Shown: positions 41,618-57,404 of the stretch, piece after piece
Numbering within the stretch: the stretch's first letter is position 1
Layout: the number at the start of each line of letters is the position of its first letter
Virus record (IMG/VR): IMGVR_UViG_3300042881_004206
Reading direction: 5' to 3' (one strand)
Length of the DNA: 64,000 nt
DNA from: a virus
Lineage: Duplodnaviria; Caudoviricetes
Made by a program: the position numbers and the translations under genes
The notes under the pieces: model-generated
What the model was told of the DNA's origin: nothing
The model's input: the letters and a program-made list of their open reading frames with translations, nothing else
Database searches by the model: none

Positions 41618-42331
41618 ATGAAAGCTACTGTGATTATACCGACCACTGGTTCACCAGAAGTTCGGAATGCTATAGAATCTGTACTAAAACAAACTATGGA
41701 AACTCAATGTTATGTTGTATGTGATGGTGAACAATATGGCGGTAAATCTGATGTTATAATTTCCGATTTTGGTGGTTGCAAAAATGTAAAATACACCAAA
41801 CTACCAATTAATGTTGGTGCAAATGGTTTCTATGGACACAGAATATATGCCGCTTTTACACACTTAATTGATACTCAATACGTTCTTTACCTGGATCAGG
41901 ACTGTTGGTTTGAACCAAATCATGTAGAAGAATGTATCAAGTCTATCGAAAGAAACGACCTGGATTGGTCCTATTCACTCCGTAAAATATGCAATAAAGA
42001 GGGCAAGTACCTTTGCAATGACGATTGTGAATCTCTCGGTGCATGGAAAACTTATCACGGAGTAAATCATATAGATACTAATTGTTATTGCATTAAAACT
42101 GAAGTTGCGATAAAATTGGCACAGGTTTGGCATGGAGGTTGGGGTCAAGACAGAGTTTGGCTTCAAGTTTTATCGCAACATTTTCCGAAATATGATTGCA
42201 CAGGCCTTTACACATTAAATTATAGAGTTGATGGAAATGCTGGTTCAGTAACCGCCGACTTCTTTTATAATGGTAATGAAGTTATGAATAGACGTTATGA
42301 TGGAGATTTCCCATGGAGAAAAAGAATTTAA
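41618..42331 (+). CDS. Glycosyltransferase family 2
   Basis: ATVIIPT, VVCDG, YVLYLDQDCW (DxD). Confidence 0.85.
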   Translation: MKATVIIPTTGSPEVRNAIESVLKQTMETQCYVVCDGEQYGGKSDVIISDFGGCKNVKYTKLPINVGANGFYGHRIYAAFTHLIDTQYVLYLDQDCWFEPNHVEECIKSIERNDLDWSYSLRKICNKEGKYLCNDDCESLGAWKTYHGVNHIDTNCYCIKTEVAIKLAQVWHGGWGQDRVWLQVLSQHFPKYDCTGLYTLNYRVDGNAGSVTADFFYNGNEVMNRRYDGDFPWRKRI

Positions 42332-43194
42332 TTATTGGAGGTTTCACCAATTACAATTATAGTCAGTTGAAACCTTGGGTCGAATCAATTGATGAATGTG
42401 GTTTTAGTGGTGATAAAGTGATGGTTGTTGGCAACGCATCACAGGAAACAAAAAATAAGTTACAAGAAAAAGGATTCGTATTGGTCGATATGCCACAGAT
42501 GAATGTGCCCATTCATGTTGCTCGATTTTTATCAATATACGAATATCTTAGAAATAACTGGCAAAATTATAATTATGTTGTGACAACAGATGTTAAAGAT
42601 GTTTATTTTCAAATTGATCCGTGTGAGTGGTTAGATTTTCATATAAACACTAAGTATAAGTTAGTTGCTGGTTCTGAAAGTATGAGATATAAAGATGAAC
42701 CTTGGGGAAATGAAAATTTGATGCAAGCATATGGTCCTTATATACACAACTTGTTTAAAGACACTGTAATATACAATGTGGGTACCATCGGTGGTAAATC
42801 AGAATATGTGAAAGACCTGGTCTTCAACATTTTCACAAATGCTATTAATAGACCTATTCCAATAGTTGATCAAGCGGTGTATAATGTTCTATTGAATACA
42901 CAACCATATAAAGATGTTACATTTTTTGCATCACAGTCCGATGGATGGGCTTGTCAAGCCGGCACCACAGTTGATCGATCAAAAATAGAAAAATTCAGAC
43001 CTTTCTTAACTGAAGCCGAACCTTTGTGGGAAAACGGTAAAGTTTTAACTGGTCAAGATTCGTCACATTGTAAAAAAGGAACTCCATTTTGCATCGTGCA
43101 TCAGTACGACCGAGTTCCTGAATGGAAAAAGTTTATACAAGAAAAATATGATCAAGACGATCCCAATCAACATTTTGTTTACAGGACAGTATAA
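42313..43194 (+). CDS. GT-A-like glycosyltransferase
   Basis: VVTTDVKDVYFQ, YNVGTIGG, DQAVYN and IVHQYDR. Confidence 0.7.
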   Translation: MEKKNLIIGGFTNYNYSQLKPWVESIDECGFSGDKVMVVGNASQETKNKLQEKGFVLVDMPQMNVPIHVARFLSIYEYLRNNWQNYNYVVTTDVKDVYFQIDPCEWLDFHINTKYKLVAGSESMRYKDEPWGNENLMQAYGPYIHNLFKDTVIYNVGTIGGKSEYVKDLVFNIFTNAINRPIPIVDQAVYNVLLNTQPYKDVTFFASQSDGWACQAGTTVDRSKIEKFRPFLTEAEPLWENGKVLTGQDSSHCKKGTPFCIVHQYDRVPEWKKFIQEKYDQDDPNQHFVYRTV

Positions 43195-43769
43195 TGAGTG
43201 ACCTTATAAAATTCAATACTTTTCAACAAGCTTTTGGAACACAAACACCAAAAAATATTTTCAAGTGTTCTGGATATGGTCTATCCGAACTGATAAAAGA
43301 TTTTAATAATCCTATTGGATTAGAAATTGGATGTGATATCGGTGACACAACAGAATTTTTGTTAAGTTCAAAAGAAGATTTAAATCTAATTTCGATTGAT
43401 CCGTATGAGAACTATGTTGATTGGAATGGTCGACCACTAAATGAACGAGAAGAAGTTTTCAATCGAATGATGGAAAGAATGAAAATTTTTAACAATCGTT
43501 TCACGCTTATCAGAAAAACTTCTGATGATGCGGTAGTTGATTTTCACGAAGAACAATTTGATTTTATTTTTATTGATGGTTTACATACTTATGATCAATT
43601 ATCTAAAGACTGTGAAAACTATTATAAATTCTTAAAACCTGGAGGCATATTCTCGGGACATGATTTTACAGCAATTGAAGGTGTCAATCGTGCAGCGAAT
43701 GAATTTGCAACAAAGGTCAACAAAGAAATAATGACAACCGAATGTGATGTTTGGTATTGGTACAAATGA
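43194..43769 (+). CDS. Class I SAM-dependent methyltransferase (Methyltransf_24-like)
   Basis: GLEIGC, ISIDPY, DFIFIDGLHTY and GGIFSGHD. Confidence 0.88.
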   Translation: MSDLIKFNTFQQAFGTQTPKNIFKCSGYGLSELIKDFNNPIGLEIGCDIGDTTEFLLSSKEDLNLISIDPYENYVDWNGRPLNEREEVFNRMMERMKIFNNRFTLIRKTSDDAVVDFHEEQFDFIFIDGLHTYDQLSKDCENYYKFLKPGGIFSGHDFTAIEGVNRAANEFATKVNKEIMTTECDVWYWYK

Positions 43770-44452
43770 AAAAGTGTATAATATTATCAGGTCAATACAG
43801 AACATTTGAAAAGACCAAAGAGAATATCAAAAAATTCATTGATATTAATGATATGGATGTTTATTGCCATATCTGGTCGATGGATGCGAGAGAAATAGAT
43901 GATGTCAAACATACTCTTGTTCCCAGAGCTATTCTCTGTGAAGATTTTAAAAAATACGAGGATCAATTCAACAAAATTGAATCTAGAATACGATCAACGA
44001 ATCCGAAAAATGCTCCAGACGATAAAGTTGCTGGAAATGCATCAATGAATTTTAGTCGAAAGAGAGCCTTTGATCTGATAGAAGAAAAATATGACATACT
44101 AGTTTATTGCAGATATGATATTGCATTCAAGTATCCTTTTCAATTTGAAAATGTCGATAAAATTTATACTCCCTTAGAAGAATCATACAATCTGATATCG
44201 GATATTTTTGCAATAATGCCGTTTGACTATGCAAAAAATTATTTTATATATGACAATTATGAAAAATTACACTCAACACAATTTGAAAAAGATTTTGAAG
44301 ATTATTTGAGATATAAAAAAGTTTACGGTGAAGAAAATATTAGAATTCATAAACATGAACGTTATTGCCCACATATGATGTTACTTAGAAATTTGGTAAT
44401 GACTAATACACCATTTGAAACATTCAATTTGCCAGTGGGTCTACAGAGATGA
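43766..44452 (+). CDS. Putative glycan-modifying protein (SGQxR family), paralog 1
   Basis: IILSGQYRT, DVYCHIW, YCRYD and ISDIFA; ATGA overlap start. Confidence 0.55.
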   Translation: MKKCIILSGQYRTFEKTKENIKKFIDINDMDVYCHIWSMDAREIDDVKHTLVPRAILCEDFKKYEDQFNKIESRIRSTNPKNAPDDKVAGNASMNFSRKRAFDLIEEKYDILVYCRYDIAFKYPFQFENVDKIYTPLEESYNLISDIFAIMPFDYAKNYFIYDNYEKLHSTQFEKDFEDYLRYKKVYGEENIRIHKHERYCPHMMLLRNLVMTNTPFETFNLPVGLQR

Positions 44453-45126
44453 AAATAGCACTATGTTTTTCTGGCCAGGCCAGATCCTTTGAAAAAGGTT
44501 TCGAATTTTATAAGAAAAATCTTTTGGATCACTATGATGTGGATGTTTATGTGCATTCTTGGAAATTCGAAAACGAAAGAAAACTGTTAGAATTATACCG
44601 ACCAAAAAATTATGAATTCGAAACTCCCCCTCTTGGTGATTTTGATAATCGTTACACTAATACTCCTAATCCCCAAAAGCATCCACCAAAATTTACATAC
44701 CGAATGTTATATTCCATGTATAGGTGCAGCCAAATTATATTAGGAGAATACGATTGGATTATCAAGTCTCGTACAGATTATGCGTTGAATGTGAAGATAC
44801 CCTTTGAAAAACTTGATAGTCGAATACTTTATATACCAAATTGTAGAATGGTACCTGAAAGAAATTTTGGTAATGATCAGTTTGCTTTTAGTTCGCATGA
44901 AAATATGTTGAAGTACATGTCGACCTACAATAACATTGATAAGTATTATAATGCAGGAAATCAATTCATAGGTGAAGATATGATGCGAGCAAATCTACAT
45001 GAACACAATTTACACGGAGAAAAACTTGTTTATGTTAACATGAACAATCCTTTTCCTCCAGGTCCGCACAATGGAACATGGCATTCTTTGATTCGTGATG
45101 ATTATGACCAATGGATAAAATCGTAA
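44449..45126 (+). CDS. Putative glycan-modifying protein (SGQxR family), paralog 2
   Basis: ALCFSGQARS, DVYVHSW, KSRTD and NDQFAF. Confidence 0.55.
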   Translation: MKIALCFSGQARSFEKGFEFYKKNLLDHYDVDVYVHSWKFENERKLLELYRPKNYEFETPPLGDFDNRYTNTPNPQKHPPKFTYRMLYSMYRCSQIILGEYDWIIKSRTDYALNVKIPFEKLDSRILYIPNCRMVPERNFGNDQFAFSSHENMLKYMSTYNNIDKYYNAGNQFIGEDMMRANLHEHNLHGEKLVYVNMNNPFPPGPHNGTWHSLIRDDYDQWIKS

Positions 45127-45866
45127 AAGAATTTCATGGCCATTCTGGTAGCCAAGTTTATTTGATGGAGAATGAACACGGACTATATGTTAAGAAAAAT
45201 GGTAATGTGTTAAGAAACATCGAAAGGATGCAGGCATTATTGAATGCTGGTTTTCCCGTGCCAAAAATTTATATTTGTGACTCGCAAACAATGAATATGC
45301 AATATATTCATGGTCTCGACATGAAAAATTATTTAATTCATTCCGACACAGATCCTTTGATTAATTTTATCAAGGAAACAATAGATAAATTTAAGTCTAA
45401 TACAAAAGAAAAAGACTACACGGAAATATACAATCAGAAGTTAATGTGGATGAATCAAGATAGTAATCTACCATTTACAAAAGATGAACTAATAGAATTA
45501 TTACCTAAAAAATTACCACAATCATTATATCACGGCGATATGACATTAGAAAATATTATGCATACAAAAAAAGGTTTCTATTTTATTGATCCCGTGACAA
45601 TCGAATATGACTCATACATATTTGATATAGCTAAATTGAGACAAGATTTGGAATGTAAATGGTTTCTGAGAAATGAAAATCTAAAATTGGATGTTAAGTT
45701 ACAGAATATTAAAGATGAATTAAAATATTTTTATCCACAAGCTTTCAATGATTCATTATTAATACTGATGTTACTCAGAGTTTATGTACATTGCAAAAAA
45801 GATGATTTCAATTATAATTTTGTGAAAAGAAATATAGAACAATTGTGGAATTATTTAAAAACATAA
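45111..45866 (+). CDS. APH/choline-kinase-like phosphotransferase
   Basis: GHSGS, YHGDMTLENI and FIDP...FDIAKLRQDL. Confidence 0.8.
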   Translation: MDKIVKEFHGHSGSQVYLMENEHGLYVKKNGNVLRNIERMQALLNAGFPVPKIYICDSQTMNMQYIHGLDMKNYLIHSDTDPLINFIKETIDKFKSNTKEKDYTEIYNQKLMWMNQDSNLPFTKDELIELLPKKLPQSLYHGDMTLENIMHTKKGFYFIDPVTIEYDSYIFDIAKLRQDLECKWFLRNENLKLDVKLQNIKDELKYFYPQAFNDSLLILMLLRVYVHCKKDDFNYNFVKRNIEQLWNYLKT

Positions 45867-45882
45867 GTGAAATGGAATAACT

Positions 45883-46914
45883 ATGGAAATTATTGTGCCT
45901 GCGGCTGGATTATCAACTCGTTTTCCAGATATGAAACCAAAATATCTTCTTTTTGACTACAAACACGATATGATGCTCTCAAATTCTGTTTACAGATATA
46001 AGGAGATGGGACACAATATCACTATTGGTATCTTAAAGGAACATGATGAAAAATACAACGCAAAAGATTTTATACATCATGAATTGGGAGAAGATGTGCG
46101 AGTTGTAATTTTAGAAAAGCCAACGAGAGGTCCTGCTGAAACCGTCTATGAAATCCTAAAGATAGCAAATATTGTCGATGACGAAATCTTTATCAAAGAT
46201 TGTGACAGTTTCTTTGATCATGAAATAGAATCTGGAAATTATATTTGTGTTTCAGACATTACAAAGCACGAAGTGTTGAAAAAACTCTCATCAAAAAGCT
46301 TTGTTATTGCAAATGAACAGATGATCATTACGAACATAATTGAAAAGCGGGTTGTTTCTAATACATTTTGTGTTGGTGGTTATAAATTCAGCAGAGCAAA
46401 AGATTATATCGAATCGTATGAAGAAATATGCAAATATACAGGAGAAATATTTGTATCTGATGTAATTGGAAGGATGATTGACAAAAATCATGTTTTCATC
46501 AAAAAAGATGTGACGAATTATTTTGATGTTGGTACTGCACAAGATTGGTTTGAATATAATGATAAACCTGTATTCTTCTGTGATATTGACGGCACACTCA
46601 TAAAATCACAAACAAGAGTTGGATCAAACACATATTATGATCCACCAATTGTTTTAGAGAACAATGTAAAAATTATGTTGGAATATCAAAGTAAAGGCGC
46701 ACAAATTATTTTTACCACTTCTCGACCTAAATCTGTTGATCACATTACACGGTCCATGTTAGAATCTTTAGGTTTCAAAAACATTCAATTGATTTCCGGA
46801 TTACTTAATTCCAAACGAATACTGATAAATGATTTTAATGCTGGAAATCCTTTTCCGAGGGCCGAGGCTATAAATTTATTCAGAGATGATGATTTATTGA
46901 AAAATTTTCTATGA
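45883..46914 (+). CDS. Nucleotidyltransferase fused to HAD phosphatase
   Basis: IVPAAGLSTRF N-terminus; FCDIDGTL, FTTSRP and LINDF HAD motifs. Confidence 0.82.
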   Translation: MEIIVPAAGLSTRFPDMKPKYLLFDYKHDMMLSNSVYRYKEMGHNITIGILKEHDEKYNAKDFIHHELGEDVRVVILEKPTRGPAETVYEILKIANIVDDEIFIKDCDSFFDHEIESGNYICVSDITKHEVLKKLSSKSFVIANEQMIITNIIEKRVVSNTFCVGGYKFSRAKDYIESYEEICKYTGEIFVSDVIGRMIDKNHVFIKKDVTNYFDVGTAQDWFEYNDKPVFFCDIDGTLIKSQTRVGSNTYYDPPIVLENNVKIMLEYQSKGAQIIFTTSRPKSVDHITRSMLESLGFKNIQLISGLLNSKRILINDFNAGNPFPRAEAINLFRDDDLLKNFL

Positions 46915-47606
46915 TTCCAGATAAAAATTTATTTATTGTAACATCTTGTATAAAACCCGTAATTGGTGTTTTTTCAGAAGAAGTTAGATTTTTGCAAACA
47001 ATCGATTCACTAATATCAATTAGAGAAAAAGATCCTGATGCGATTATATTTTTGTGTGATGCATCTGTAAATAAACTCACCGAAAAAGAATTAGATAAAC
47101 TAAATCGATATTGCAATTTGTTTATTGACATGAATAATTTTCCTCATGTCAGAGAACTTTCATCTAAAGGTCTAAAAAGTCATGCCGAAAATGCTCTAAT
47201 GTTTGGAGTATTGGCATCACTAAAACAAGGTGTAAATTCACAGAAAATGATGTATTCTGTGAAAAGAATATTCAAATATTCTGCACGAACAAACTTAAAT
47301 GAAAACTTTAGATTAGAAGATTATGATAATCTTTTCGGCAAGTTTGTTTTCAAGAAAAGAATACCAACTTGGATGCAAAATGTACAAAATGATGCAACGA
47401 ATCTTTTAATAACAAGACTGTTTTCTTTTTGTCCCTCGTTGATTGATGTATACTTGAATGTCATCAATGAGAATTTCAGATTATTGAATTATATGGACAC
47501 CGAACATGCACACTTTGTAAACATACCAAAAAAATACTTAGTGGAGTTCGATAATATAGGTTGCGTGGGTTTTTTGGCAGGAAATGGTGCGACCGAGGTA
47601 TATTAA
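46911..47606 (+). CDS. Hypothetical protein (possible glycosyltransferase-associated)
   Basis: FIVTSCI...RFLQTIDSLISIR...IFKYSAR; last gene of cluster. Confidence 0.5.
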   Translation: MIPDKNLFIVTSCIKPVIGVFSEEVRFLQTIDSLISIREKDPDAIIFLCDASVNKLTEKELDKLNRYCNLFIDMNNFPHVRELSSKGLKSHAENALMFGVLASLKQGVNSQKMMYSVKRIFKYSARTNLNENFRLEDYDNLFGKFVFKKRIPTWMQNVQNDATNLLITRLFSFCPSLIDVYLNVINENFRLLNYMDTEHAHFVNIPKKYLVEFDNIGCVGFLAGNGATEVY

Positions 47607-47643: not shown

Positions 47644-47684
47644 TTGACTTTTTAAACCTCTTATGATATAATTCGTTATAAATA
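47644..47684 (+). promoter_or_regulatory. Tandem sigma70 and late promoters
   Basis: TTGACT-17-TATAAT (47644-47672) with TG, then TATAAATA (47677-47684). Confidence 0.72.
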
Positions 47685-47729: not shown

Positions 47730-48923
47730 ATGAAATCTTTCGTTTCGTTTCTCCGTGAAGAATCAGAACAGCCGGAAGGCGAAAAACTCAAACATATTGA
47801 GCACCTAGAAGACCATCCTATTAACGATGGTAAAAGGGGATTTGAACACGCCGTTGGTGCATTAGATCAGGCACACAAACACATCATTGCTGGTAGTCAC
47901 GATTCAACTTTGACTATGAAACACGATGGATCACCTTCTATTGTATTTGGTCATCATCCTGAAACTGGCAAGTTTTTTGTGGCATCAAAATCGGCTTTCA
48001 ATAAGAATCCAAAAATCAACTACACACCAGAAGATATTAAAAATAACCATGGCCATGCACCAGGTCTAGTAGAAAAATTAACTCACGCACTACAACACCT
48101 ACCTAAAATTACACCAAAACAGGGTGTTTTTCAAGGTGATGTTCTTTTCTCCGGCAAAGACAAGACTACTTCCGGCGGTGTAACAAAGTTTACTCCCAAC
48201 ACAATCACTTATTCCGCAGACAATCCGGAAGAAGAAAAAAAGATCCGTAAGGCCAAATTCGGCATCTATAATCATACAGAGTATGTTGGTAAGTCTGCCA
48301 AGGCAATGACTGCAAACTACAGTCCCAACTTTGAAAATTTCAAAGAACATCCCGAGGTATATCACCGAATGGGTGGTCATGATACATCTAAGGTCAAAAT
48401 GACTGGCAATCAACATGTTGAATATGCGCAACATCTGAAAGCTGCAAATAAAGTGCATAATGCACACGGCAACTACATGTATGATGCGCTGGAAAACCCT
48501 GGATCCTATGGATCACTTCGTGATCATGTGAAAACATACATTAATTCAACTGTGGATACACAAGAAAAACCATCTGTTCCGGGTTTACAGAAACATTTGG
48601 AAAACAAATACAACAAACAGATCGACAAAGTTAAAACTGATGCTGCCAAGAAAAAGTATCAGGATGAAGTTGCGAGTCACATTAAACATACCAATTTACA
48701 CAAACAAAACTTAGAAAATGTATTCTCTGTACACCATCACTTGCAGAAAGCTAAAGATGTTCTCGTACATGCACTCTCAACACATACTGGTGGTCTCAAA
48801 CATGAATATAAAGGACAACCAGTGAAACCTGAGGGATTTGTAATTAACCATGAAGGTCAACTATCAAAATTCAATGACCGCAATGAATTCAATAGACTCA
48901 ACAGACTAGCAAGATCAAAATGA
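47730..48923 (+). CDS. Ligase-like nucleotidyltransferase-fold protein with capsid-targeting-like N-terminus
   Basis: MKSFVSFLREE; KHDG (motif I KxDG), QGD, EGFVI and K in motif order. Confidence 0.6.
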   Translation: MKSFVSFLREESEQPEGEKLKHIEHLEDHPINDGKRGFEHAVGALDQAHKHIIAGSHDSTLTMKHDGSPSIVFGHHPETGKFFVASKSAFNKNPKINYTPEDIKNNHGHAPGLVEKLTHALQHLPKITPKQGVFQGDVLFSGKDKTTSGGVTKFTPNTITYSADNPEEEKKIRKAKFGIYNHTEYVGKSAKAMTANYSPNFENFKEHPEVYHRMGGHDTSKVKMTGNQHVEYAQHLKAANKVHNAHGNYMYDALENPGSYGSLRDHVKTYINSTVDTQEKPSVPGLQKHLENKYNKQIDKVKTDAAKKKYQDEVASHIKHTNLHKQNLENVFSVHHHLQKAKDVLVHALSTHTGGLKHEYKGQPVKPEGFVINHEGQLSKFNDRNEFNRLNRLARSK

Positions 48924-50734
48924 AGAAATTTTCAGAATTAGTAGAAGAAAAAAACAAACATCTCGTGATGTTGTTTGGACGCATGAATCCACCAACTAAA
49001 GGTCACGAAGAAAACGTCGAGGGAATGAAAAAAATGGCCCAACGAAATGGTGCCGACCATCTTGTTGTTGCTTCACATTCACAAGATGCAAAGAAAAATC
49101 CACTTTCTCCTGATGTTAAATTGAAGCATCTAAAACGTTCATTTCCAGATACGAATGTCATTACATCCAGTAAAGAGAAACCATCAATCATGCATCATGC
49201 TGCAGATGCATATAAAAAAGGTTATAGTCATTTGACGGTTGTTGCTGGTGCAGACCGCGTACCTGAATATGAAAGATTATTGAATCACTACAATGGCAAA
49301 TTCAAAGATGAAGCTGGAACACCAGTTGGCCATGGTGGTTATAATTTCAAGAGCATCAAAGTTGTTTCGACTGGTGAAAGAAAAAAAGGTATTTCTGGCA
49401 CCGATATGCGCAATCATGCACAGAACAACGATTTCAAATCTTTTCATGCAAATCTATCCTCGTCAATGAGGAAAAATCCAAATCATGCTAAAGAGTTATT
49501 TCATGATGTTAGAAAAGGTATGGGTTTAAATGAAGACACAAATCGTGGTATTTTCAAAGCCATCTTTGTGACGGGTGGGCCAGGTTCCGGAAAAGATATT
49601 GTTATCCGAGAAGCAATTTCTGAACAAAAAGCCGTTGAAATTAATATCACTCAAGCATATGATTTTCTCTGTGATAAACATAAACTGGCAGAAAAAACAA
49701 ATGATTATCGCAGAGAATCGATCCGTCTTCGTGGCCCATTAATTATCAATGGACCGGCCGATTCAGGAAAAGAAATGATTTGGGTGAAAGAAGAACTGGA
49801 AGAACTCGGTTACCAGACAATGATGGTGTTTGTTGATACGACAAATGAAGTTTCAAAACAAAGAAACATGAAATTGTCGAAAATGATATCGGAATCGATG
49901 CGCCAAGAAAAATGGATGGAAGCACAAAAATGCAAGGAATCTTATCAAAATTGTTTCGATGAATTCATCTATATCAATAACAGTGGATCCTATCAAGAAA
50001 TAGAAGATGATATTACTGATACCTATAAAGAAATAAATACATTTATTGAGGGCAAGAACTATAATGAGATTGCTTCTTATTGTATGGAAAACCGTGGTAA
50101 AAATGAAACCACATCTACTTTGAAGGAAAATGACTATGTTAAGAAAAATTCTAGATTTTTTGAGAATTACAAAACCAGCCGTGCAGGAAAAACACCCACT
50201 GGATATAGCAAAATATCAACCGGTGGTCCAAGAGCAGAAGGTCCAGGAGACATTACCCCAGACAACAGAGCCAGTGACACCAACACAGACAACATCAAGT
50301 GGGACGCACCAAAAAGAACAAAAACCTACACCTTCAGAACCTACAGTGAAGCCAAAGGCACCCCGCAAATCAAGGTCTACCCACAACCAAAAGAAACCAA
50401 CTTCAGTAAAGACAAAGAAAAAGTAAAGAAAAGGGGTATAGTTGATGCACCAACAGTCAGTCAAAGAATGAGAAATGTGACGAGTTTAGGTCCAGAGTTT
50501 GATACTAGACAACAAGGAACTGTGTACCCAATGTCTGGTTTAGGAGATGTGACATATAGAGAAGAAAAGAATTTTAGAAATTTTAAAAAATTCTTAGAAT
50601 CTCACATGGATCCGGGCGACAATGAAATGGGTGTTGGTGGCGTATTAGGTGGATCAACAAACAAAGAACCGATGGAAAACCCAAAGGATAAATTAGGTCA
50701 AACTTACACAATAAAAAAGAATAAAAAGAAATGA
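48920..50734 (+). CDS. Nucleotidyltransferase (HxGH-type) plus P-loop kinase fusion, putative head-internal protein
   Basis: MKKFSELVEE; FGRMNPPTKGH, VVAGADRV, ISGTDMR; then GGPGSGKD and GYQTMMVFVDT..SKQRN. Confidence 0.75.
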   Translation: MKKFSELVEEKNKHLVMLFGRMNPPTKGHEENVEGMKKMAQRNGADHLVVASHSQDAKKNPLSPDVKLKHLKRSFPDTNVITSSKEKPSIMHHAADAYKKGYSHLTVVAGADRVPEYERLLNHYNGKFKDEAGTPVGHGGYNFKSIKVVSTGERKKGISGTDMRNHAQNNDFKSFHANLSSSMRKNPNHAKELFHDVRKGMGLNEDTNRGIFKAIFVTGGPGSGKDIVIREAISEQKAVEINITQAYDFLCDKHKLAEKTNDYRRESIRLRGPLIINGPADSGKEMIWVKEELEELGYQTMMVFVDTTNEVSKQRNMKLSKMISESMRQEKWMEAQKCKESYQNCFDEFIYINNSGSYQEIEDDITDTYKEINTFIEGKNYNEIASYCMENRGKNETTSTLKENDYVKKNSRFFENYKTSRAGKTPTGYSKISTGGPRAEGPGDITPDNRASDTNTDNIKWDAPKRTKTYTFRTYSEAKGTPQIKVYPQPKETNFSKDKEKVKKRGIVDAPTVSQRMRNVTSLGPEFDTRQQGTVYPMSGLGDVTYREEKNFRNFKKFLESHMDPGDNEMGVGGVLGGSTNKEPMENPKDKLGQTYTIKKNKKK

Positions 50735-51846
50735 AAACATTCCTACAACACAGCAAAGATTATGAAAAGTCTGAGATAGAAAGACAACTTGCACATTTTA
50801 GGGATATGGCCGAAAAGAGTAAACTGTCGGCTGAAACCTCTTTGATGCGAGGTGACCTCGATGGTCATGTAACATTCATGGCAAAACATGCTCATTTCAT
50901 GAAGCAATATGATCACTTAAACTCCATAAAGGAAGGTGTTGAAAGGATTGAAGAAGGCGAAAGCATTGTAACACCTAGAAAAACACTTCATGGTGAACCA
51001 CCAAAAGGAACTTACGCATACGAAAGAAAATATGGTGCCTATACTGCCAAGGGTGAGCTTCGAAAGAAACCAAACCCAAATAAACCACCCGTTAAAGAAA
51101 GCATTGATGAAAGCCATGTTGCAATTGCAATGGGTAAAGAAATGGATGATGAAGGAAGTATGATCATGAATCAGCTGGATCAAATTCAGCGTTCATGTGA
51201 AATGCTTCGTAAAGAAATCAAAGATCCAGAAATGCAATTACCTGCATGGGTACAATCCAAAGTAACTTTGGCTGCTGATTATATGGAAACAGTTGCTGGT
51301 TATATGGCAAGCAAGAATGAAAAAGTTAACGAAGAAGTCGAAGAAATTTATGAAGGTGATTATTCGGTAACTGTTAAACACACCAAAGATGGTCAAACGG
51401 TTGATCATGAATATATTGTGAAAAACGCTCAGAGTCCGAGACACGCCAAACATATTGCAATGAACCGACATGAAAATAAAGTTGGTAGATTGCAACCAGG
51501 CGAACAATATAGTGCCAGCAACAACACGGTTAGAGAACTCAATAAAGAAGAAGTTGAAAATATTGAGGAAGCCACACCAGCCTGGCAACGCAAAGAAGGC
51601 AAGTCTGAATCTGGTGGCTTAAATAGAAAAGGTATTGCAAGTTACAGACGCCAAAATCCTGGTTCCAAGTTATCAATGGCTGTTACAACTAAACCATCAA
51701 AATTAAAACCAGGTTCTAAGGCAGCTAATCGCCGCAAATCTTTTTGTGCCAGAATGACAGGAATGAAAAAGAGATTGACTTCTGCCAAGACAGCAAAAGA
51801 TCCAAATTCTAGAATCAACAAATCACTACGCAAGTGGAACTGCTAA
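50731..51846 (+). CDS. Modular putative capsid-internal polyprotein 1
   Basis: MKTFLQH start; modules separated by IDE/IYE/IEE; basic C-module ATPAWQRKEGK..RRKSFCARM. Confidence 0.65.
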   Translation: MKTFLQHSKDYEKSEIERQLAHFRDMAEKSKLSAETSLMRGDLDGHVTFMAKHAHFMKQYDHLNSIKEGVERIEEGESIVTPRKTLHGEPPKGTYAYERKYGAYTAKGELRKKPNPNKPPVKESIDESHVAIAMGKEMDDEGSMIMNQLDQIQRSCEMLRKEIKDPEMQLPAWVQSKVTLAADYMETVAGYMASKNEKVNEEVEEIYEGDYSVTVKHTKDGQTVDHEYIVKNAQSPRHAKHIAMNRHENKVGRLQPGEQYSASNNTVRELNKEEVENIEEATPAWQRKEGKSESGGLNRKGIASYRRQNPGSKLSMAVTTKPSKLKPGSKAANRRKSFCARMTGMKKRLTSAKTAKDPNSRINKSLRKWNC

Positions 51847-51860
51847 ACGGAGAACAATAA

Positions 51861-53060
51861 ATGAACGACCTAAGAAAAAAAGATTCAGTTGCCGATTCAA
51901 TCCAATCAATTTTGGAAAAAGAATTGTCCACAAAACAAAAGAAAATTGCAAAAATGTCTCCACCAGAAGACAAGATTGACGCTGGTGATTTGGCTAAGTT
52001 GAGAGCTGGTCATAAACCAACTAGTGAAGAAATCGATCCTAATAACACAACAACAGATACATTAAAAGGTCGCGAGAAAAAAAGTGATAATCGGTTCCTC
52101 TCAAAGAAAGTTTTGATGGATGTTCCAGGAAATGTTAAAGAAGAATCGGAACAACTGGATGAACTGAAAAAGTCAACTGTAAAATCTTATATTGGCAAGA
52201 AAATGGATTCACTTCCGGGCAAAGATCCGAAGAAGGATCAAGAAAGTCTGATGAGAGCTCACCATCGTGTAACTGGTGTTAAGCCAACATCTGAATCAGT
52301 TAAAACATTAAAATCGTTTAGAGAAGAAATAGAAGAACCTATTTTGGACGAACTGATCAATGAAGTCTTGGGTAAAGACGCATCCGCTGGTGATTGGATT
52401 CACGATTTCGTTCATTCTGATAATCCAAAATTCAAGGGCAAGTCTAAAGCTAAACGCAAAGAAATGGCTTTGGCTGCCTATTATGCAAAACAACGTAATG
52501 AAGAAGTTGAACAATTGGATGAAGGTAAGATGAAAGAACTTTCTATTGATTTGAAAGATATGTCGCATGACGAATTTCAGAAACAATATGGCAAATCAAA
52601 AAGTCATTTCACTTCGAATCCAAAAGAAACTGGCGCAACCGTTTCGAGCATTCGTGCTAAATTAGCAGATAAGAAAATGGCAAAAGAAGAAATTGAAGTT
52701 GAAGAATCTGCTAATCCATTCAGTCCCGACTATAAAAGTCAAATGAAAACCAAACCAGGTGAAAAAGCTGGATTTGACTCCAAGAAAATTTCGACCGGCA
52801 CTGTTTATTCTAAAAAACATAAAGCAGAACCGGAAGATGATAAAAAAAAAGTAAATGAAATGAAAAGACCCGAGAGTGACACTGTTCCTTTTGTGAGTGA
52901 TGTGCCATTTGAGGGTCCTTATAAAAAATCTAGTTCAGCTTCTGTGGTCGACAAATCTGGAGCAAAACATACTCCTATGTCGAGAGTCAAACACTTAGCT
53001 AAACAATCAATGAAAAAAGTTAAAGCAGAAATGATGGGAAAAACAGGCACTTCTGAATAA
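51861..53060 (+). CDS. Modular putative capsid-internal polyprotein 2
   Basis: Repeated EQLDE/LINE/VEE linkers between basic modules such as DWIHDFVHSDNPKFKGKS. Confidence 0.65.
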   Translation: MNDLRKKDSVADSIQSILEKELSTKQKKIAKMSPPEDKIDAGDLAKLRAGHKPTSEEIDPNNTTTDTLKGREKKSDNRFLSKKVLMDVPGNVKEESEQLDELKKSTVKSYIGKKMDSLPGKDPKKDQESLMRAHHRVTGVKPTSESVKTLKSFREEIEEPILDELINEVLGKDASAGDWIHDFVHSDNPKFKGKSKAKRKEMALAAYYAKQRNEEVEQLDEGKMKELSIDLKDMSHDEFQKQYGKSKSHFTSNPKETGATVSSIRAKLADKKMAKEEIEVEESANPFSPDYKSQMKTKPGEKAGFDSKKISTGTVYSKKHKAEPEDDKKKVNEMKRPESDTVPFVSDVPFEGPYKKSSSASVVDKSGAKHTPMSRVKHLAKQSMKKVKAEMMGKTGTSE

Positions 53061-53068
53061 GGTCTAAG

Positions 53069-54403
53069 ATGAATAAATCACAAATTATCAAATCAGTTGT
53101 GAAGAAAAAGGGTCCTCCTACCACATTCGGTACGGACCCACAAAATCCATGGGCAACAAAATCAAATGTGACTGAATCTTCCATCAACGAATGGAAACAA
53201 AGCTCTGCTTTGGTTCGTTTCTTGAAATCAAAAGGTGTTGATCCGCGATATGTCACAAAAGACACAATGATCAGTCATTCGAAATCTGGAGAATTTTCTA
53301 AATGGAAGTCTGACCATAATATATCGGAAGAAGCTGATAAAAAAGATACAATCACTTTCGACATACCATTGATAATTCGCATGTTGGAGTTAGCCAGAGA
53401 AGATTTGAAGTCGGACGCTGATTTGCATCGTGTTGTTGAAAAATTAATTGAAATACGCAACAAAGGCGTATTGACTATGGACGATTATGATTATGTTGCC
53501 AACATTAAAGAAGGTTTTGAAGTTACGGATGAAATGCATGACATGTTGGATGAAGACCTGAGAAAATGGTTTAAACAAAAGTGGGTGCGTATGGATACCA
53601 AAGGTAACATAAAAGGTGATTGTGCTCGTGAACCGGGTGAAGGAAAACCAAAGTGTCTGCCTATGGCTAGAGCGCATGCTTTAGGAAAAGAAGGTCGCGC
53701 ATCTGCGGCTAAACGCAAGCGCAGAGAAGATCCTAATCCCGAAAGAAGAGGAAGTCCAATTAATGTGCGTACAGAAGAAGTTGAAGAATTGAACGAAAAA
53801 AATAAACCAACAAGTCCAGAAAAGTGGGCTCGTGCAAAGGCGGCTGCAAAATCCAAATTTGCAGTTTATCCTTCCGCATATGCAAATGCTTGGGCAGCCA
53901 AGAAATACAAATCCATGGGTGGTGGTTGGAGAAGTACGAACGAAGAATCGGAACAAGTTGACGAGAGATGCTGGCCTGGTTACAGACCAGTTAAAGGTAA
54001 AAAAGCTTATGATAAAGGATCTTGTGTGAAAGAAGACAAGTTTCAAGATCCTTATGCTGCCACACAGACAGTCGGTATGGAAATTGATACAGATTCTGTT
54101 CCAAGTAGAAAAAAAGAATTATCTAAATCTGCAAGAATCATAAAATCGATTTATAAAAAAAAGAACGTGAAAGAGGAATTATATGATCATGAAAAGGAAA
54201 AGAAAGTTCCTTCTTTAGGTAAAAAACCTAAAGTGTCTGAAATAGCTGGCGAAATCGGAAAAATGCCTGCGGCTGCTGCAGTCATGTCTGGTGGAACCAC
54301 CATGACTGGTGAAAAAAGAGATACAGTAGAAATTGACCCAATGATGAAATTCAAAGTTGGAGTTTCCGATAAGTCGGGTCAAGTAGATCCAACAAAAAGA
54401 TAA
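53069..54403 (+). CDS. Modular putative capsid-internal polyprotein 3
   Basis: INE/ISEE/LDE/LNE/VDE linkers; modules LRKWFKQKWV, YPSAYAN and CWPGY..C. Confidence 0.65.
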   Translation: MNKSQIIKSVVKKKGPPTTFGTDPQNPWATKSNVTESSINEWKQSSALVRFLKSKGVDPRYVTKDTMISHSKSGEFSKWKSDHNISEEADKKDTITFDIPLIIRMLELAREDLKSDADLHRVVEKLIEIRNKGVLTMDDYDYVANIKEGFEVTDEMHDMLDEDLRKWFKQKWVRMDTKGNIKGDCAREPGEGKPKCLPMARAHALGKEGRASAAKRKRREDPNPERRGSPINVRTEEVEELNEKNKPTSPEKWARAKAAAKSKFAVYPSAYANAWAAKKYKSMGGGWRSTNEESEQVDERCWPGYRPVKGKKAYDKGSCVKEDKFQDPYAATQTVGMEIDTDSVPSRKKELSKSARIIKSIYKKKNVKEELYDHEKEKKVPSLGKKPKVSEIAGEIGKMPAAAAVMSGGTTMTGEKRDTVEIDPMMKFKVGVSDKSGQVDPTKR

Positions 54404-54439
54404 ATAGTAACATAACCCTCGGTTAAAAGGAGAATAACA

Positions 54440-55123
54440 ATGTCATCTTGGGGAAATAACGACAATGCTGCCAATGCTCCATATTGGGCAGTCAATTCTA
54501 CAATCGTAAATGCAGCTGGAGTAAAGGCTTCCGCTGCAGCACCTACGGCCGCAAACGTTGCTTTATTATATGGCAACACAACCGCTGATGTATACACATC
54601 AGGTGAAACCATCGGTCTGTTTGGTGTTGATGCACAAGAAGCTACAGTTACTCATGCTCAACACACCGGATGGGTGTTGAGAACTACAGGTTCTGGTGGC
54701 CGTGCTAACAGAGTACAACATGAAGTGCTTGTTGCTTTAAGTGAAATGAAAGGACCTGACGGTGATGCGCAGCAGTATCCTAATGTGTCTATCACTTTAG
54801 TCAGCCCATCCGGTGCAACAGTAACTTCCAATACATCCAACGCCAACTTTGCGACATTTACCGTTGGAACATCATTGGTTGGAAACACAAGTGCAACACT
54901 GTCTTACCAGTGGCAAATTAATAGCAATACAGGTTCCCTTGGTTGGACAAATGTTGCAAACAATACACCAACCGCAACTGGTTACCTGGACGGAACAACC
55001 AATACACTCAAGGTTTACCCATACAACGCAACCGCAAACCAGTATGTTGTTCGCGCAATTGTTACGGCAGCCGATCAGGGTGTATCAGCAACATCCGCCA
55101 ACGCAATCGTTACAATTATGTAA
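54440..55123 (+). CDS. Virion structural protein with C-terminal Ig-like domain (head decoration-like)
   Basis: GATAAATA at 54399; Ala/Thr-rich; LSYQWQ...YVVRAIVT Ig pattern; own terminator. Confidence 0.65.
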   Translation: MSSWGNNDNAANAPYWAVNSTIVNAAGVKASAAAPTAANVALLYGNTTADVYTSGETIGLFGVDAQEATVTHAQHTGWVLRTTGSGGRANRVQHEVLVALSEMKGPDGDAQQYPNVSITLVSPSGATVTSNTSNANFATFTVGTSLVGNTSATLSYQWQINSNTGSLGWTNVANNTPTATGYLDGTTNTLKVYPYNATANQYVVRAIVTAADQGVSATSANAIVTIM

Positions 55124-55132
55124 TTTTAGAAC

Positions 55133-55155
55133 GGGGCAGTTCGCTGCCCCTTTTT
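55133..55155 (+). terminator. Intrinsic terminator (UUCG loop)
   Basis: GGGGCAG-TTCG-CTGCCCC followed by TTTTT. Confidence 0.88.
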
Positions 55156-55159
55156 AATT

Positions 55160-55546
55160 ATGTTTGATAATTTGAATGAAGATAATTTTATCATCTACGC
55201 AATGAAGTGTTATACTTCTCCGCATTGTATTATGTCGGAATTTGAAGGTGATATAAAAAGAACAAAATATCTAAAAAGATTGTTTCGAAGATATAAAATT
55301 ACTAAGTCATTAAAAGAACGTTTAATATTGAACCATATTATTCTGTTAAATAATGTATTTGGTAATGAAGCAACAACAAGAATTTTGTTTTACAAAACAG
55401 ATGAACGCGATTATGATGTTTTAAAGACATTTTTAATGTACTTAAATATTATGCCTGATGTGGTGTGTGGCATCAAAGGTAAAAACATACACATAGAAGA
55501 CATTCCTATTGATTCGAATATTGCAGAAATATTAAGTAAAATATGA
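55160..55546 (+). CDS. Conserved T4-like hypothetical protein
   Basis: NFIIYAMKCY..P.C..EFEGDIKRTKYLKRL...RLILNHIILLNNVFG. Confidence 0.65.
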   Translation: MFDNLNEDNFIIYAMKCYTSPHCIMSEFEGDIKRTKYLKRLFRRYKITKSLKERLILNHIILLNNVFGNEATTRILFYKTDERDYDVLKTFLMYLNIMPDVVCGIKGKNIHIEDIPIDSNIAEILSKI

Positions 55547-55734
55547 AAAATTTCAAAAAATTCGTATACGAAGATGGTGTCGGCGCAGTAGCTGCCGCAC
55601 CCACAAATACAACAGGATCCGGTCAAGTAGCTGGTATGGGTCAACCACCTGGTAGCAAATCTGGTGAACCAGGAGTCAGCAAAAAAAGAAATCCAATGAT
55701 GGGATTTTTTAAAAGAAAACAACCGAAAATGTAG
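55543..55734 (+). CDS. Small basic peptide with capsid-targeting-like N-terminus
   Basis: MKNFKKFVYE followed by Gly/Ala/Pro-rich and basic tail. Confidence 0.55.
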   Translation: MKNFKKFVYEDGVGAVAAAPTNTTGSGQVAGMGQPPGSKSGEPGVSKKRNPMMGFFKRKQPKM

Positions 55735-55743
55735 GATATTAAA

Positions 55744-56199
55744 ATGTGGATTTTAGAATGGTTGCCTTTTTGGATATTTTATGTTATACTTCTGATAGGT
55801 GTATTGGGACTGGCTGCAACCTTTCTGATGCGTTTTTTACCTATTCCTGGTCTATATCTTTATAAAACTGCAATACAACTAGTATCGATTGTTCTAGTCG
55901 TTATAGGCACCTATATGTCTGGTGCAATATCAAACGAAGAATCCTGGTTGGCAAAAGTCAAAGAACTTGAAACTAAAGTATCTGAATCCGAAAAAAAGGC
56001 AGCCGAAAAAAATACCGAAATTGTTGAAAAAGTAGTCACGAAGACTCAAGTTATAAAAGAAAAGGGTGATGATATCATTAAGTATGTGGACAGAGAAGTG
56101 GTAAAAAAAGAAGAAGTTGTCAAATTTGTTGAAAACTGTCCTATACCAAATGACATCATTAACGCTCACAATGCAGCTGCAAGCCTAAATAAAAAATGA
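55744..56199 (+). CDS. Putative i-spanin
   Basis: N-terminal TM segments, coiled coil, C-terminal Cys; overlaps lipoprotein gene. Confidence 0.6.
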   Translation: MWILEWLPFWIFYVILLIGVLGLAATFLMRFLPIPGLYLYKTAIQLVSIVLVVIGTYMSGAISNEESWLAKVKELETKVSESEKKAAEKNTEIVEKVVTKTQVIKEKGDDIIKYVDREVVKKEEVVKFVENCPIPNDIINAHNAAASLNKK

Positions 56200-56507
56200 G
56201 ATTAGTTTTACTTATTTTACCATTTTTATTATCGGCTTGCGCAATGTTTAAAACCGTTGTGCCCGTTGAAAGACATTTCCCCGAAGTGCCCAAAACATTA
56301 CAGGAAAAATGTAATGAATTAAAAACTTTACAGGGAGACAAGGTTTCAATTACAGATATGTTAAAAGTTGTGGTTGAAAATTATAGAATGTACTATGAGT
56401 GTTCAACAAAAGTTGAAGGTTGGCAAGAATGGTATGATGAACAACGGAAAATATTTGATGGTGTGGATAAAAAACAAAAATCTTGGTACAATATTTGGAG
56501 TAAATAA
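56196..56507 (+). CDS. Putative o-spanin lipoprotein
   Basis: LLSAC lipobox; FPEVP..C..L...YYEC pattern. Confidence 0.65.
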   Translation: MRLVLLILPFLLSACAMFKTVVPVERHFPEVPKTLQEKCNELKTLQGDKVSITDMLKVVVENYRMYYECSTKVEGWQEWYDEQRKIFDGVDKKQKSWYNIWSK

Positions 56508-56767
56508 TGAAATATTTAATTCTAGCACTCACTTGTCTCTCACTCACTGGCTGTGCAACAGCTAGTAAAGACCAATTATATTACGATACAGCTAAGTCAA
56601 TTAGTAAAGATAATACAATGTCACAAACAGCATGTTGGTCTGCTGTCACCGAAATAGCAAAAGGTGGCGACAACTCAGCTAAAGTTGGTGCAATTGCACT
56701 TGCTGATAGATGCAAAAATGAAACAGTTAAAATTGAAGCTCCAAAAAGAAATTGGATGGGATTTTAA
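56507..56767 (+). CDS. Lipoprotein
   Basis: MKYLILALTCLSLTGC lipobox. Confidence 0.7.
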   Translation: MKYLILALTCLSLTGCATASKDQLYYDTAKSISKDNTMSQTACWSAVTEIAKGGDNSAKVGAIALADRCKNETVKIEAPKRNWMGF

Positions 56768-56777
56768 AGGATAAAAA

Positions 56778-57404
56778 ATGGAATTAACATTAGAACAATT
56801 AAAACAATTACTTCCAAAAAATCCTTATGTAACTCATTGGCATAATGCTCTGGTGCAATTATTTCCTGACTATGAAATAAACACATCTAGAAGAATGGCA
56901 GCATTCATTGCTCAATGTGCTCATGAGTCTGGTGGATTCATGATTCTCACAGAGAATTTAAATTACAAATGGCAAACACTTAGAAAATTATTTCCAAAGT
57001 ATTTTCCTGATGATGCAACCGCACAAAGATACGCATCAATGCCGAACAAACAAGAGGCAATTGCAAATAGAATTTATGCAAGCCGGATGGGTAATGGACC
57101 CGAAGAATCTGGTGACGGATTCAAGTATCGTGGCCGTGGTTTGATTCAACTTACCGGTCGCGATAACTATTCTTGGTTTGCAGCTTCACTAGAAATTTCT
57201 GCCGAAGAAGCAACAGAATACCTAGGCACATTTGAAGGTGCTGCACAGTCCGCGTGTTGGTTCTGGGAAACAAATAAACTCAATCAATGGGCAGATAACG
57301 GCGACATTGTAACTTTGACAAAGCGAATCAATGGTGGAACCATAGGGCTTGATGATCGCATTAAACATTATGAACATGCGCTTCACGTTCTAGGGGGTCA
57401 CTGA
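56778..57404 (+). CDS. Glycoside hydrolase family 19 endolysin
   Basis: FIAQCAHESGGF, YRGRGLIQLTGRDNY, SACWFW and RINGGTIGLDDR. Confidence 0.92.
   Translation: MELTLEQLKQLLPKNPYVTHWHNALVQLFPDYEINTSRRMAAFIAQCAHESGGFMILTENLNYKWQTLRKLFPKYFPDDATAQRYASMPNKQEAIANRIYASRMGNGPEESGDGFKYRGRGLIQLTGRDNYSWFAASLEISAEEATEYLGTFEGAAQSACWFWETNKLNQWADNGDIVTLTKRINGGTIGLDDRIKHYEHALHVLGGH

Follow-up and report, generated by a model that had tools for sequence, protein, structure and literature searches.

The question raised by positions 47730 to 55734 of the window analysed here, a 64,000-nucleotide stretch of the IMG/VR virus record IMGVR_UViG_3300042881_004206, is why several otherwise unrelated proteins encoded side by side should begin with much the same ten residues, and what becomes of those proteins during assembly of the virus. 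The locus comprises eight plus-strand open reading frames (ORFs), designated A to H, in a window that is itself part of a 156.6-kb T4-like phage genome. The head and tail gene set of this genome includes tail sheath, tube, portal (Portal_T4), prohead protease (Peptidase_S77), scaffold (T4_CASP) and major capsid protein (Gp23) genes, and its closest database relatives belong to the Kyanoviridae, namely phage C48C1, Pelagibacter phage HTVC008M, Methylophilales phage Melnitz and the cyanomyoviruses; a megablast search of the block against the phage collection returned zero matches. The original prediction took the block to encode packaged, capsid-internal proteins built from protease-separable modules. 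The observation itself is confirmed, and the interpretation placed upon it is partly supported; the locus is probably a set of late-expressed genes with which a T4-like marine myovirus encodes head cargo (internal or ejection proteins).

N-terminal leaders and the head assembly genes

The leaders in question are MKSFVSFLRE in ORF A (47730-47759), MKKFSELVEE in ORF B (48920-48949), MKTFLQHSKDYE in ORF C (50731-50766) and MKNFKKFVYE in ORF H (55543-55572). In phage T4, where the capsid-targeting sequence, the specificity of the gp21 protease and the existence of hypervariable ip loci defined by the leader are established, internal proteins IPII and IPIII begin with MKTYQEFIAE (as given in the T4 record); residues 4 and 7 of that leader serve targeting and residues 8 and 10 serve processing, with gp21 cutting after L/I-x-E (PMC9026906, a review). 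In T4, Asp at position 10 prevents processing but leaves targeting intact. ORFs A, B and H agree in register with the T4 leader at all four of these positions: the targeting pair is F4/F7, F4/L7 and F4/F7, respectively, as against Y4/F7 in T4, and the processing pair is L8/E10, V8/E10 and V8/E10. ORF C starts with M-K-T-F, in which F4 fits, but positions 7, 8 (S8) and 10 (D10) do not. Hence all four leader strings that had been described as near-identical are indeed present, and three of them conform to the T4 pattern, whereas the copy in ORF C is degenerate.

The leader is rare in the proteome and confined to this locus. Across a proteome of 48,877 residues, a core pattern of (K/R)-x-(F/Y)-x-x-(F/L/Y/I/M)-(I/L/V)-x-E has seven occurrences, and only in ORFs A, B and H does it begin at residue 2 (three observed against approximately 0.02 expected); relaxing the pattern adds only ThyX, apparently by chance. 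The leader is conserved across more than 200 metagenomic homologues. Nearly all of 120 homologues of the DUF6267 protein encoded by ORF A (52-89% identity) begin with M-x-x-(F/I/L)-x-x-(F/L/Y)-(L/I)-x-E, and the 59 of these that were aligned all have M1 and E10, and almost all L8; likewise, nearly all full-length homologues of ORF B (120 sequences) have M-K-x-F, an aliphatic residue at position 8 and Glu10. In AlphaFold2 (AF2) models of ORFs A and B the leader is modelled with low confidence as a short helix that stands clear of the fold, with a predicted local distance difference test score (pLDDT) of 45 for this region of ORF A. Since the codons differ between copies, conservation of the leader acts at the level of the protein; for the same reason, the idea that leaders and linkers might be repeated DNA or scars left by recombination was rejected.

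In seven metagenomic relatives and in phage C48C1, leader-bearing ORFs likewise gather in the stretch from the DUF6267 gene to the lysis genes and include many small ORFs (with leaders such as MKSFKQYIAE, MKTFQEYITE and MKRFQEFINE); outside the block, a loose regular expression for the leader finds only two matches in these relatives, both in membrane proteins. Genes with the leader occur in the same neighbourhood in HTVC008M, Melnitz, S-SM1 and Syn9 too. Pfam and Protein Data Bank (PDB) searches with the additional leader-bearing proteins of the relatives gave zero matches. As a separate observation, homologues of the transferase domain of ORF B (48920-49549) occur in jumbo phages that infect enterobacteria and Pseudomonas (PA5oct and Rak2-like phages), and the PA5oct match begins at query residue 1, so the leader may reach beyond marine phages.

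The components that would be expected to act on such leaders are encoded elsewhere in the window. A gp21-type prohead protease (4534-5178, plus strand; Pfam Peptidase_S77, E 4.9e-34), whose His and Ser motif regions align with those of T4 gp21, is the presumed processing enzyme, and a gp22-type scaffold protein (5217-6491, plus strand; Pfam T4_CASP, E 5.6e-65) is the presumed docking core. A predicted complex of the C-terminal part of gp22 with ORF H scored 0.00 and is not used as evidence in either direction. At the N-terminus of gp23 (6533-6688), motif and alignment place the likely maturation site after a propeptide of about 52 residues (Q-L-N-E, followed by A-T-A-A-A), as compared with 65 residues in T4 (F-L-T-E, followed by A-E-I); the LNE previously noted at the probable maturation site is found at gp23 residues 50-52.

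The exact sequence said to precede the block is also in place. This T4-type late-promoter-like sequence, TATAAATA, lies on the plus strand at 47677-47684, 46 nucleotides upstream of ORF A, and a second box, GATAAATA, lies on the same strand upstream of ORF F (54399-54406). Taken simply as a count, TATAAATA is no commoner than chance would give (3 against 4.8 expected), and it is the placement that is informative: plus-strand N-ATAAATA boxes stand 19-50 nucleotides upstream of gp19, gp22, gp23, ORF A and ORF F, with only two copies on the minus strand. On the basis of this placement, the block would be expressed late, together with the head genes.

Taken with their occurrence on unrelated proteins in a single block behind a late-type promoter, the register match and the conservation among homologues support the proposal that the leaders act as T4-type capsid-targeting sequences. 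According to the mechanism favoured here, the ten-residue leader, M-K-x-F-x-x-(F/L)-(L/V)-x-E, would dock the products of ORFs A, B and H, and weakly that of ORF C, onto the gp22 core in the course of prohead assembly, after which the gp21-type protease would remove it by cutting behind (L/V)-x-E. Both steps, capsid targeting and leader removal, appear well supported by sequence, by comparison and, for ORF B, by the proteomics of homologues.

Acidic linkers and exchange of modules in ORFs C, D and E

ORFs C, D and E (all plus strand) encode long proteins made up of basic modules; the acidic linkers between these follow the consensus EE-(V/S)-E-Q-(L/I/V)-D-E. ORF C (50731-51846, 371 residues) has linkers at residues 201-208 and 273-280 behind its degenerate leader, and ends in a strongly basic DUF6321 module (residues 281-371, isoelectric point (pI) 11.7; Pfam E 8.6e-17), which is the sole family found in the three proteins. 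ORF D (51861-53060, 399 residues) opens with a 19-residue segment ending in I-L-E, followed by basic modules and the linkers EESEQLDE (residues 94-101), EEIEE..LINE (155-168), EEVEQLDE (214-221) and EEIEVEE (276-282). ORF E (53069-54403, 444 residues) has conserved N- and C-terminal modules around an inserted run of modules, designated DTITFD, RKWF/Cys, PEKW (DUF5872-like) and CW-knuckle, each of which lies behind an (I/L/V)-x-E motif (residues 87, 148/162, 243, 299 and 322). The linker strings quoted in the original prediction are thus all accounted for, with EQLDE twice and LINE in ORF D, EELNE and EQVDE in ORF E, ENIEE in ORF C and GLNE in ORF B. Pfam searches with single modules of ORFs C, D and E, and with the basic tail of ORF B, gave only a weak, sub-threshold DUF5872 match for the PEKW module.

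The (I/L/V)-x-E motif is more frequent in ORF E than in any other protein of the genome (13 against 5.7 expected, z 3.4); the gp22 scaffold ranks third (z 2.8), and ORFs C, B and D have values of 1.7-1.9 against a genome mean of 0.4. All six proteome copies of the extended acidic linker, EE-x-E-x-(L/I/V)-x-E, belong to ORFs C, D and E; a linker of similar form turns up in the relatives 19 times within the block and once outside it. The ORF D linker EEVEQ(L/I)(D/E)E is kept in homologues from two of these relatives (L009 and L012). Predicted cuts at (I/L/V)-x-E would split the three proteins into basic pieces (pI 9.4-11.7) and short acidic ones. ORFs C to E may thus be inferred to resemble multi-cut substrates of a gp21-type protease, with enriched motifs located at module boundaries and an accessibility suggested by the low-complexity acidic context.

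The comparison with relatives shows these modules in two settings. ORF E shares its N- and C-terminal modules with E-like proteins of the relatives and carries the inserted run in addition; the inserted modules are, in the relatives, separate leader-led ORFs downstream of the DUF7207 gene. Similarly, the DUF6321 module is a stand-alone, leader-led ORF in L005, L008 and L012. Whatever their setting, the DUF6321, CW-knuckle, RKWF, PEKW, DTITFD and ORF H body modules start 0-5 residues past the (I/L/V)-x-E of either a leader or an internal site. DUF6321, for example, is preceded by F-I-N-E or Y-L-E-E in small ORFs and by N-I-E-E, E-L-D-E or H-L-E-E internally, and the CW-knuckle by Y-I-T-E, H-L-E-E, D-I-R-E or F-L-N-E in small ORFs and by Q-V-D-E or E-L-S-E internally; the DTITFD module lies behind hydrophobic-x-E in six of six proteins despite unrelated upstream sequences, and the body of ORF H is found in relatives either after a leader or, internally, after V-K-E or I-K-E. 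In an anchor-free version of this comparison, in which the first post-leader residue of small ORFs was mapped onto internal positions of proteins from other genomes, 20 of the 33 junctions had a site close by, where 8.8 would be expected (P about 4e-5, with the caveat that the junctions are not wholly independent of one another). The content of the block is hypervariable even among close relatives. The earlier suggestion of module shuffling is accordingly upheld, in the sense that modules internal to the present proteins behind (I/L/V)-x-E linkers are separate leader-led ORFs in relatives.

Internal look-alikes of the leader had also been put forward as traces of gene fusion. The two strings, FRNFKKFLES in ORF B (residues 552-561) and KTLKSFREE in ORF D (residues 148-156), are present and conserved, but no gene boundary occurs at these points in any relative. 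A further observation concerns the start of D-like proteins (51861-51917 in the window, and in L005, L008, L009, L010, L011 and L012), which have a second, longer type of N-terminal amphipathic segment of some 19-35 residues that ends in (I/L/V)-x-E, usually followed by Ala. To judge from its form, this segment may be a second class of targeting propeptide.

On the reading preferred here, the same protease would cut behind the linkers of ORFs C, D and E and so free several small basic proteins, which would stay with the DNA and leave the head with it. Over evolutionary time the modules have shifted between stand-alone leader-led genes and internal, post-linker positions. Internal cleavage of the three proteins is a coherent inference from these patterns.

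Predicted enzymes and the remainder of the block

ORF A (47730-48923, plus strand, 397 residues) and ORF B (48920-50734, plus strand, 604 residues) had been regarded, like the other large ORFs, as strings of short basic modules, a description that does not hold for either protein. Behind its leader (residues 1-10), ORF A consists of a DUF6267 protein (Pfam E 5e-93) whose AF2 model has a pLDDT of 89. Almost all of the best VIA-align matches to the model are ligases, RNA ligases being nearest: the Naegleria nick-sealing ligase (5cot; Z 9.3, root-mean-square deviation 3.7, 184 residues aligned) is followed by trypanosome REL1 (1xdn; Z 8.4), T4 Rnl2 (2hvq; Z 8.0) and then by Trl1 and DNA ligases. 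Foldseek returned DNA ligases with a probability of up to 0.97, but with an E value of 5e-3. Because the Z values are middling, the protein is described as ligase-fold and is assigned to no specific ligase family. K64, D66 and G67 of motif I (K64-H-D66-G67), together with E368-G-F-V and K380, are invariant in the 59 aligned homologues. With a K-x-D-G motif I, the site of the adenylated lysine, and a modelled fold that are both typical of the covalent nucleotidyltransferase superfamily of ATP-dependent RNA/DNA ligases, ORF A is predicted to be an RNA-ligase-fold nucleotidyltransferase. No paper on DUF6267 was found in the literature searched.

ORF B comprises the leader (residues 1-10), an HxGH nucleotidyltransferase domain (approximately residues 14-205), a GLNE junction (202-205), a P-loop kinase domain (approximately 210-390) and a basic tail (404-604). 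Pfam and PHROG identify a cytidylyltransferase plus an ATPase, the Pfam CTP_transf_like match scoring 22.8 bits against a cut-off of 21. Among 40 homologues, T26, G28, H29, S159, M163 and R164 of the signatures T26-K-G28-H29 (general form (H/T)-x-G-H) and S159-G-T-D-M163-R164 (general form S-x-T-x-x-R) are invariant, as are six of the eight residues of the P-loop GGPGSGKD, with G220 nearly so. Foldseek aligned both domains with NadR (6gzo, E 4.6e-7; 1lw7, E 2.7e-6), although template modelling (TM) scores of only 0.23-0.32 indicate that the domain orientation differs. The two-domain model aligns also with ATP sulfurylase/APS kinase, and the kinase part taken alone gives equally good matches to nucleoside monophosphate kinases and polynucleotide kinases; comparison of the ORF A and ORF B sequences with PDB chains was not informative. 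From its model, ORF B is a NadR-like HxGH nucleotidyltransferase with a C-terminal P-loop kinase. A G-(L/I/M)-x-E site is kept exactly at the transferase/kinase junction in 120 homologues, and in HTVC008M the two domains are encoded by separate genes.

The idea that cargo enzymes avoid the cleavage motif was tried and gave an equivocal result. It holds for mature DUF6267 (1.2 sites against 3.9 expected in 119 homologues), but fails for the kinase domain of ORF B (49535-50119), which is rich in (I/L/V)-x-E (8.2 against 4.3 expected in 109 homologues), an unexpected property in an enzyme that presumably finds itself beside the head protease.

Together, ORFs A and B could constitute a nucleic-acid end-repair or nucleotide-salvage kit carried as enzyme cargo. 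ORF A shares the ligase nucleotidyltransferase fold and K-x-D-G motif with RNA repair enzymes (T4 Rnl2, Pnkp and fungal Trl1), and ORF B has the same arrangement of P-loop kinase and HxGH nucleotidyltransferase as NadR; however, identities are only 10-15% (Z 7-9), and the block in this window has no 3'-phosphatase domain. In S-PM2, a 591-residue protein without the leader (S-PM2d138; L003 8986-10761) is a fusion of DUF6267 with a cytidylyltransferase, a Rosetta-stone link which argues that ORF A and the N-terminal domain of ORF B work together. Separately, a protein of about 210 residues with a D-V-D-D-T motif like that of HAD/DxDxT phosphatases is encoded beside the ligase-fold gene in L008 (11170-11817, with the leader) and L011 (12317-12928); Pfam and PDB sequence searches with it gave zero matches. 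A phosphatase-like protein of this sort, added to the kinase and the ligase fold, would make up a full set for the healing and sealing of ends.

The three remaining ORFs, all on the plus strand, differ in kind. ORF H (55543-55734, 63 residues) consists of the leader (residues 1-10) and a Gly/Pro-rich basic body of 53 residues (pI 10.7). ORF G (55160-55546, 128 residues) is a DUF7207 protein (Pfam E 4e-38) whose position is kept in all relatives, and ORF F (54440-55123, 227 residues) is acidic. Although the block had been drawn to include them, neither of these two has a leader or linkers. The C-terminal part of ORF F resembles the S-PM2d145 'virion structural protein' (BLASTP E 6e-5) and its N-terminus resembles 'S-layer domain' virion proteins in S-SM1, HTVC008M and Melnitz; by synteny it corresponds to the cyanophage virion proteins S-PM2d145 and the 'S-layer domain' proteins T4-GC425/537, and cyanophage counterparts have been seen by virion mass spectrometry (PMC3037559 Table S8). 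ORF F is probably a structural virion protein that stands outside the cargo grammar.

As to the flanks, ORF H is followed directly by genes for a membrane protein, two small lipoprotein-like (spanin-like) proteins and a GH19-like muramidase (55744-57404), a set that resembles a lysis cassette and is kept in L005, L007 and L008. Upstream of the block (41618-47606) is an operon of glycosyltransferase, methyltransferase, kinase and nucleotidyltransferase-HAD genes; its content differs among relatives, and none of its proteins has a leader.

Virion proteomics, alternative explanations and wider meaning

Published virion proteomes of cyanophages bear indirectly on the location of these proteins. 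In S-SM1 virions, mass spectrometry detected the T4-GC190 'cytidyltransferase' with 25 peptide counts, above the portal protein, as well as GC1453, GC1454, GC1455, GC425 and GC426 (PMC3037559 Table S8). The detected genes are neighbours on the S-SM1 map, in a syntenic block bounded by gp41/mazG and gp61; T4-GC190, a homologue of the ORF B transferase domain, starts with MKKFSAFLNE, and GC1454 holds an EEVENVEE linker. S-CREM2 virions likewise contained a cytidylyltransferase, ORF154, along with ORF155, ORF156 and ORF160, and the authors remarked that such enzymes are frequent in cyanophage virions, giving no mechanism (PMC10665884). The S-SM1 and S-CREM2 cytidylyltransferases match the ORF B domain with E values of 2e-26 to 3e-27 and occupy the same gene neighbourhood, and the leader is likewise found at the N-terminus of the S-SM1 and Syn9 proteins; ORF B differs in its additional kinase domain and basic tail, and the published detections come without a loading mechanism.

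Several results nevertheless count against the cargo interpretation. The leader of ORF C misses three of the four key positions, and ORFs D and E are without a T4-type leader. The motif (I/L/V)-x-E is short and turns up often in helices rich in Glu, and its abundance in the kinase domain of ORF B means either that the sites are buried or that the argument from motif avoidance is weak. In S-SM1, the DUF6267 homologue T4-GC71, which is leaderless, was not among the virion proteins detected; the T4-GC190 family was not detected in older virion studies of S-PM2 and Syn9, even though the Syn9 cytidylyltransferase carries the leader; and the S-CREM2 authors caution about co-purification (PMC10665884). 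Finally, hidden Markov models of the ORF D and ORF E families found no match among the block proteins of S-SM1, S-PM2, HTVC008M, Melnitz and C48C1, so the virion evidence by homology covers only ORF B and, weakly, ORF F. The notion that the presence of a leader predicts virion detection in cyanophages was dropped, the undetected Syn9 copy having a leader, although that study was older and less sensitive.

It could be argued from these proteomic gaps that the proteins are ordinary late cytoplasmic products, with an N-terminus shared for reasons of expression, folding or some other interaction and with mass spectrometric detections that reflect carry-over. The S-CREM2 cytidylyltransferase was represented by only three unique peptides (PMC10665884), which sits easily with the co-purification raised by its discoverers and with the negative Syn9 and S-PM2 studies, and MK-rich starts are common. 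Carry-over is harder to reconcile with 25 counts for T4-GC190 and the detection of five neighbouring products in S-SM1, and a common expression signal is harder to reconcile with a leader that is conserved as protein and not as DNA, fits the experimentally mapped T4 positions, including the invariant Glu10, and is limited to one block behind a late-type promoter; a cytoplasmic role for the block is accordingly judged improbable. The presence of homologues in mature virions bears too on the proposition that the proteins are accessory scaffold or core parts, which build or size the prohead and are then degraded and expelled in the manner of T4 gp22, gp67 and gp68. Late expression with the head genes and a motif enrichment like that of gp22 would be in keeping with such a role, given that T4 core proteins are cut into several fragments that mostly leave the head (PMC9026906). 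However, two members are predicted enzymes with intact catalytic motifs, of which DUF6267 has fewer sites than expected, the modules have a strongly basic character (pI 9.4-11.7), like DNA-associated T4 internal proteins, and content that is hypervariable between close relatives is unlike that of essential scaffold parts, all of which makes the scaffold explanation very improbable indeed.

A closer alternative accepts packaging by way of the leader, and perhaps its removal, but holds that ORFs C, D and E remain uncut, their acidic stretches being flexible, charge-balancing spacers between DNA-binding modules. The case for cutting is made only by a short motif and where it sits; (I/L/V)-x-E comes about readily where linkers are rich in Glu, abounds in an ORF B kinase domain that is presumably kept intact, and is only modestly enriched in ORFs C, D and B (z 1.7-1.9 against the genome mean of 0.4). 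Yet spacers of this kind would give no reason for hydrophobic P3 and Glu P1 residues to be kept at module starts despite unrelated upstream sequences, as in all six DTITFD proteins, for internal linkers and cleavable leaders to hold the same position before the same modules, or for the extended linker to be restricted to this block; T4 gp21, moreover, cuts core proteins into several pieces at the same motif (PMC9026906). The uncut form is therefore considered unlikely, and the late-expressed cargo reading, with leader removal and internal cutting, is retained.

Head cargo of this kind has close parallels in T4. IPI, IPII, IPIII and Alt likewise carry a ten-residue leader with key positions 4, 7, 8 and 10 and an (I/L)-x-E end on unrelated proteins; a gp21-type protease, a gp22-type scaffold and basic mature parts are common to both systems, and enzyme cargo is known in T4 in the form of Alt. 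In the present locus, by contrast, position 8 is L or V (not I) and position 4 is F (not Y), the cargo includes ligase-fold and NadR-like enzymes and three long multi-module proteins with internal linker sites, and the phage belongs to a Kyanoviridae-like marine lineage. For cyanophages and pelagimyophages, the literature searched did not describe a capsid-targeting sequence. At the T-even ip loci, according to the account of Repoila et al. (1994) cited in PMC12373910, genes sharing only the leader swap at one locus, as they do here; the transfer of modules to and from larger proteins, in which a conserved acidic linker precedes them, goes beyond the whole-gene swaps of that account. Inner-body and ejection proteins of phiKZ, 201phi2-1 and SPN3US offer a further parallel, many being cut after the Glu of a three-residue motif, often at multiple sites, with enzymes packaged and ejected, but their motif is (S/A/G)-x-E, the phages are jumbo phages and no shared ten-residue T4-type leader is known for them; no sequence similarity was found between ORFs C, D and E and these phiKZ-type proteins.

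It is tempting to go further and to regard the EE-(V/S)-E-Q-(L/I/V)-D-E linker as a portable protease-release cassette, which with the leader would form a two-part grammar for building and splitting packaged polyproteins, and the co-loaded enzymes as an injected repair or salvage kit, active before phage gene expression and pre-empting abortive-infection attacks such as tRNA cleavage and NAD depletion. This extension is speculative and, as a whole, doubtful. The cargo interpretation itself would extend the T4 system of capsid targeting and gp21 processing to the abundant marine Kyanoviridae-like myoviruses, and the leader would provide a concrete loading mechanism for the 'non-structural' cytidylyltransferases, and their uncharacterized neighbours, that recur in purified cyanophage virions. 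The leader is also a candidate tag for packaging foreign proteins in such phages, and a leader and linker grammar that can be searched for would make head cargo predictable from sequence across marine viromes. For the phages themselves, the arrangement suggests that enzymes and shuffled small basic proteins may be delivered to the host at the moment of infection.

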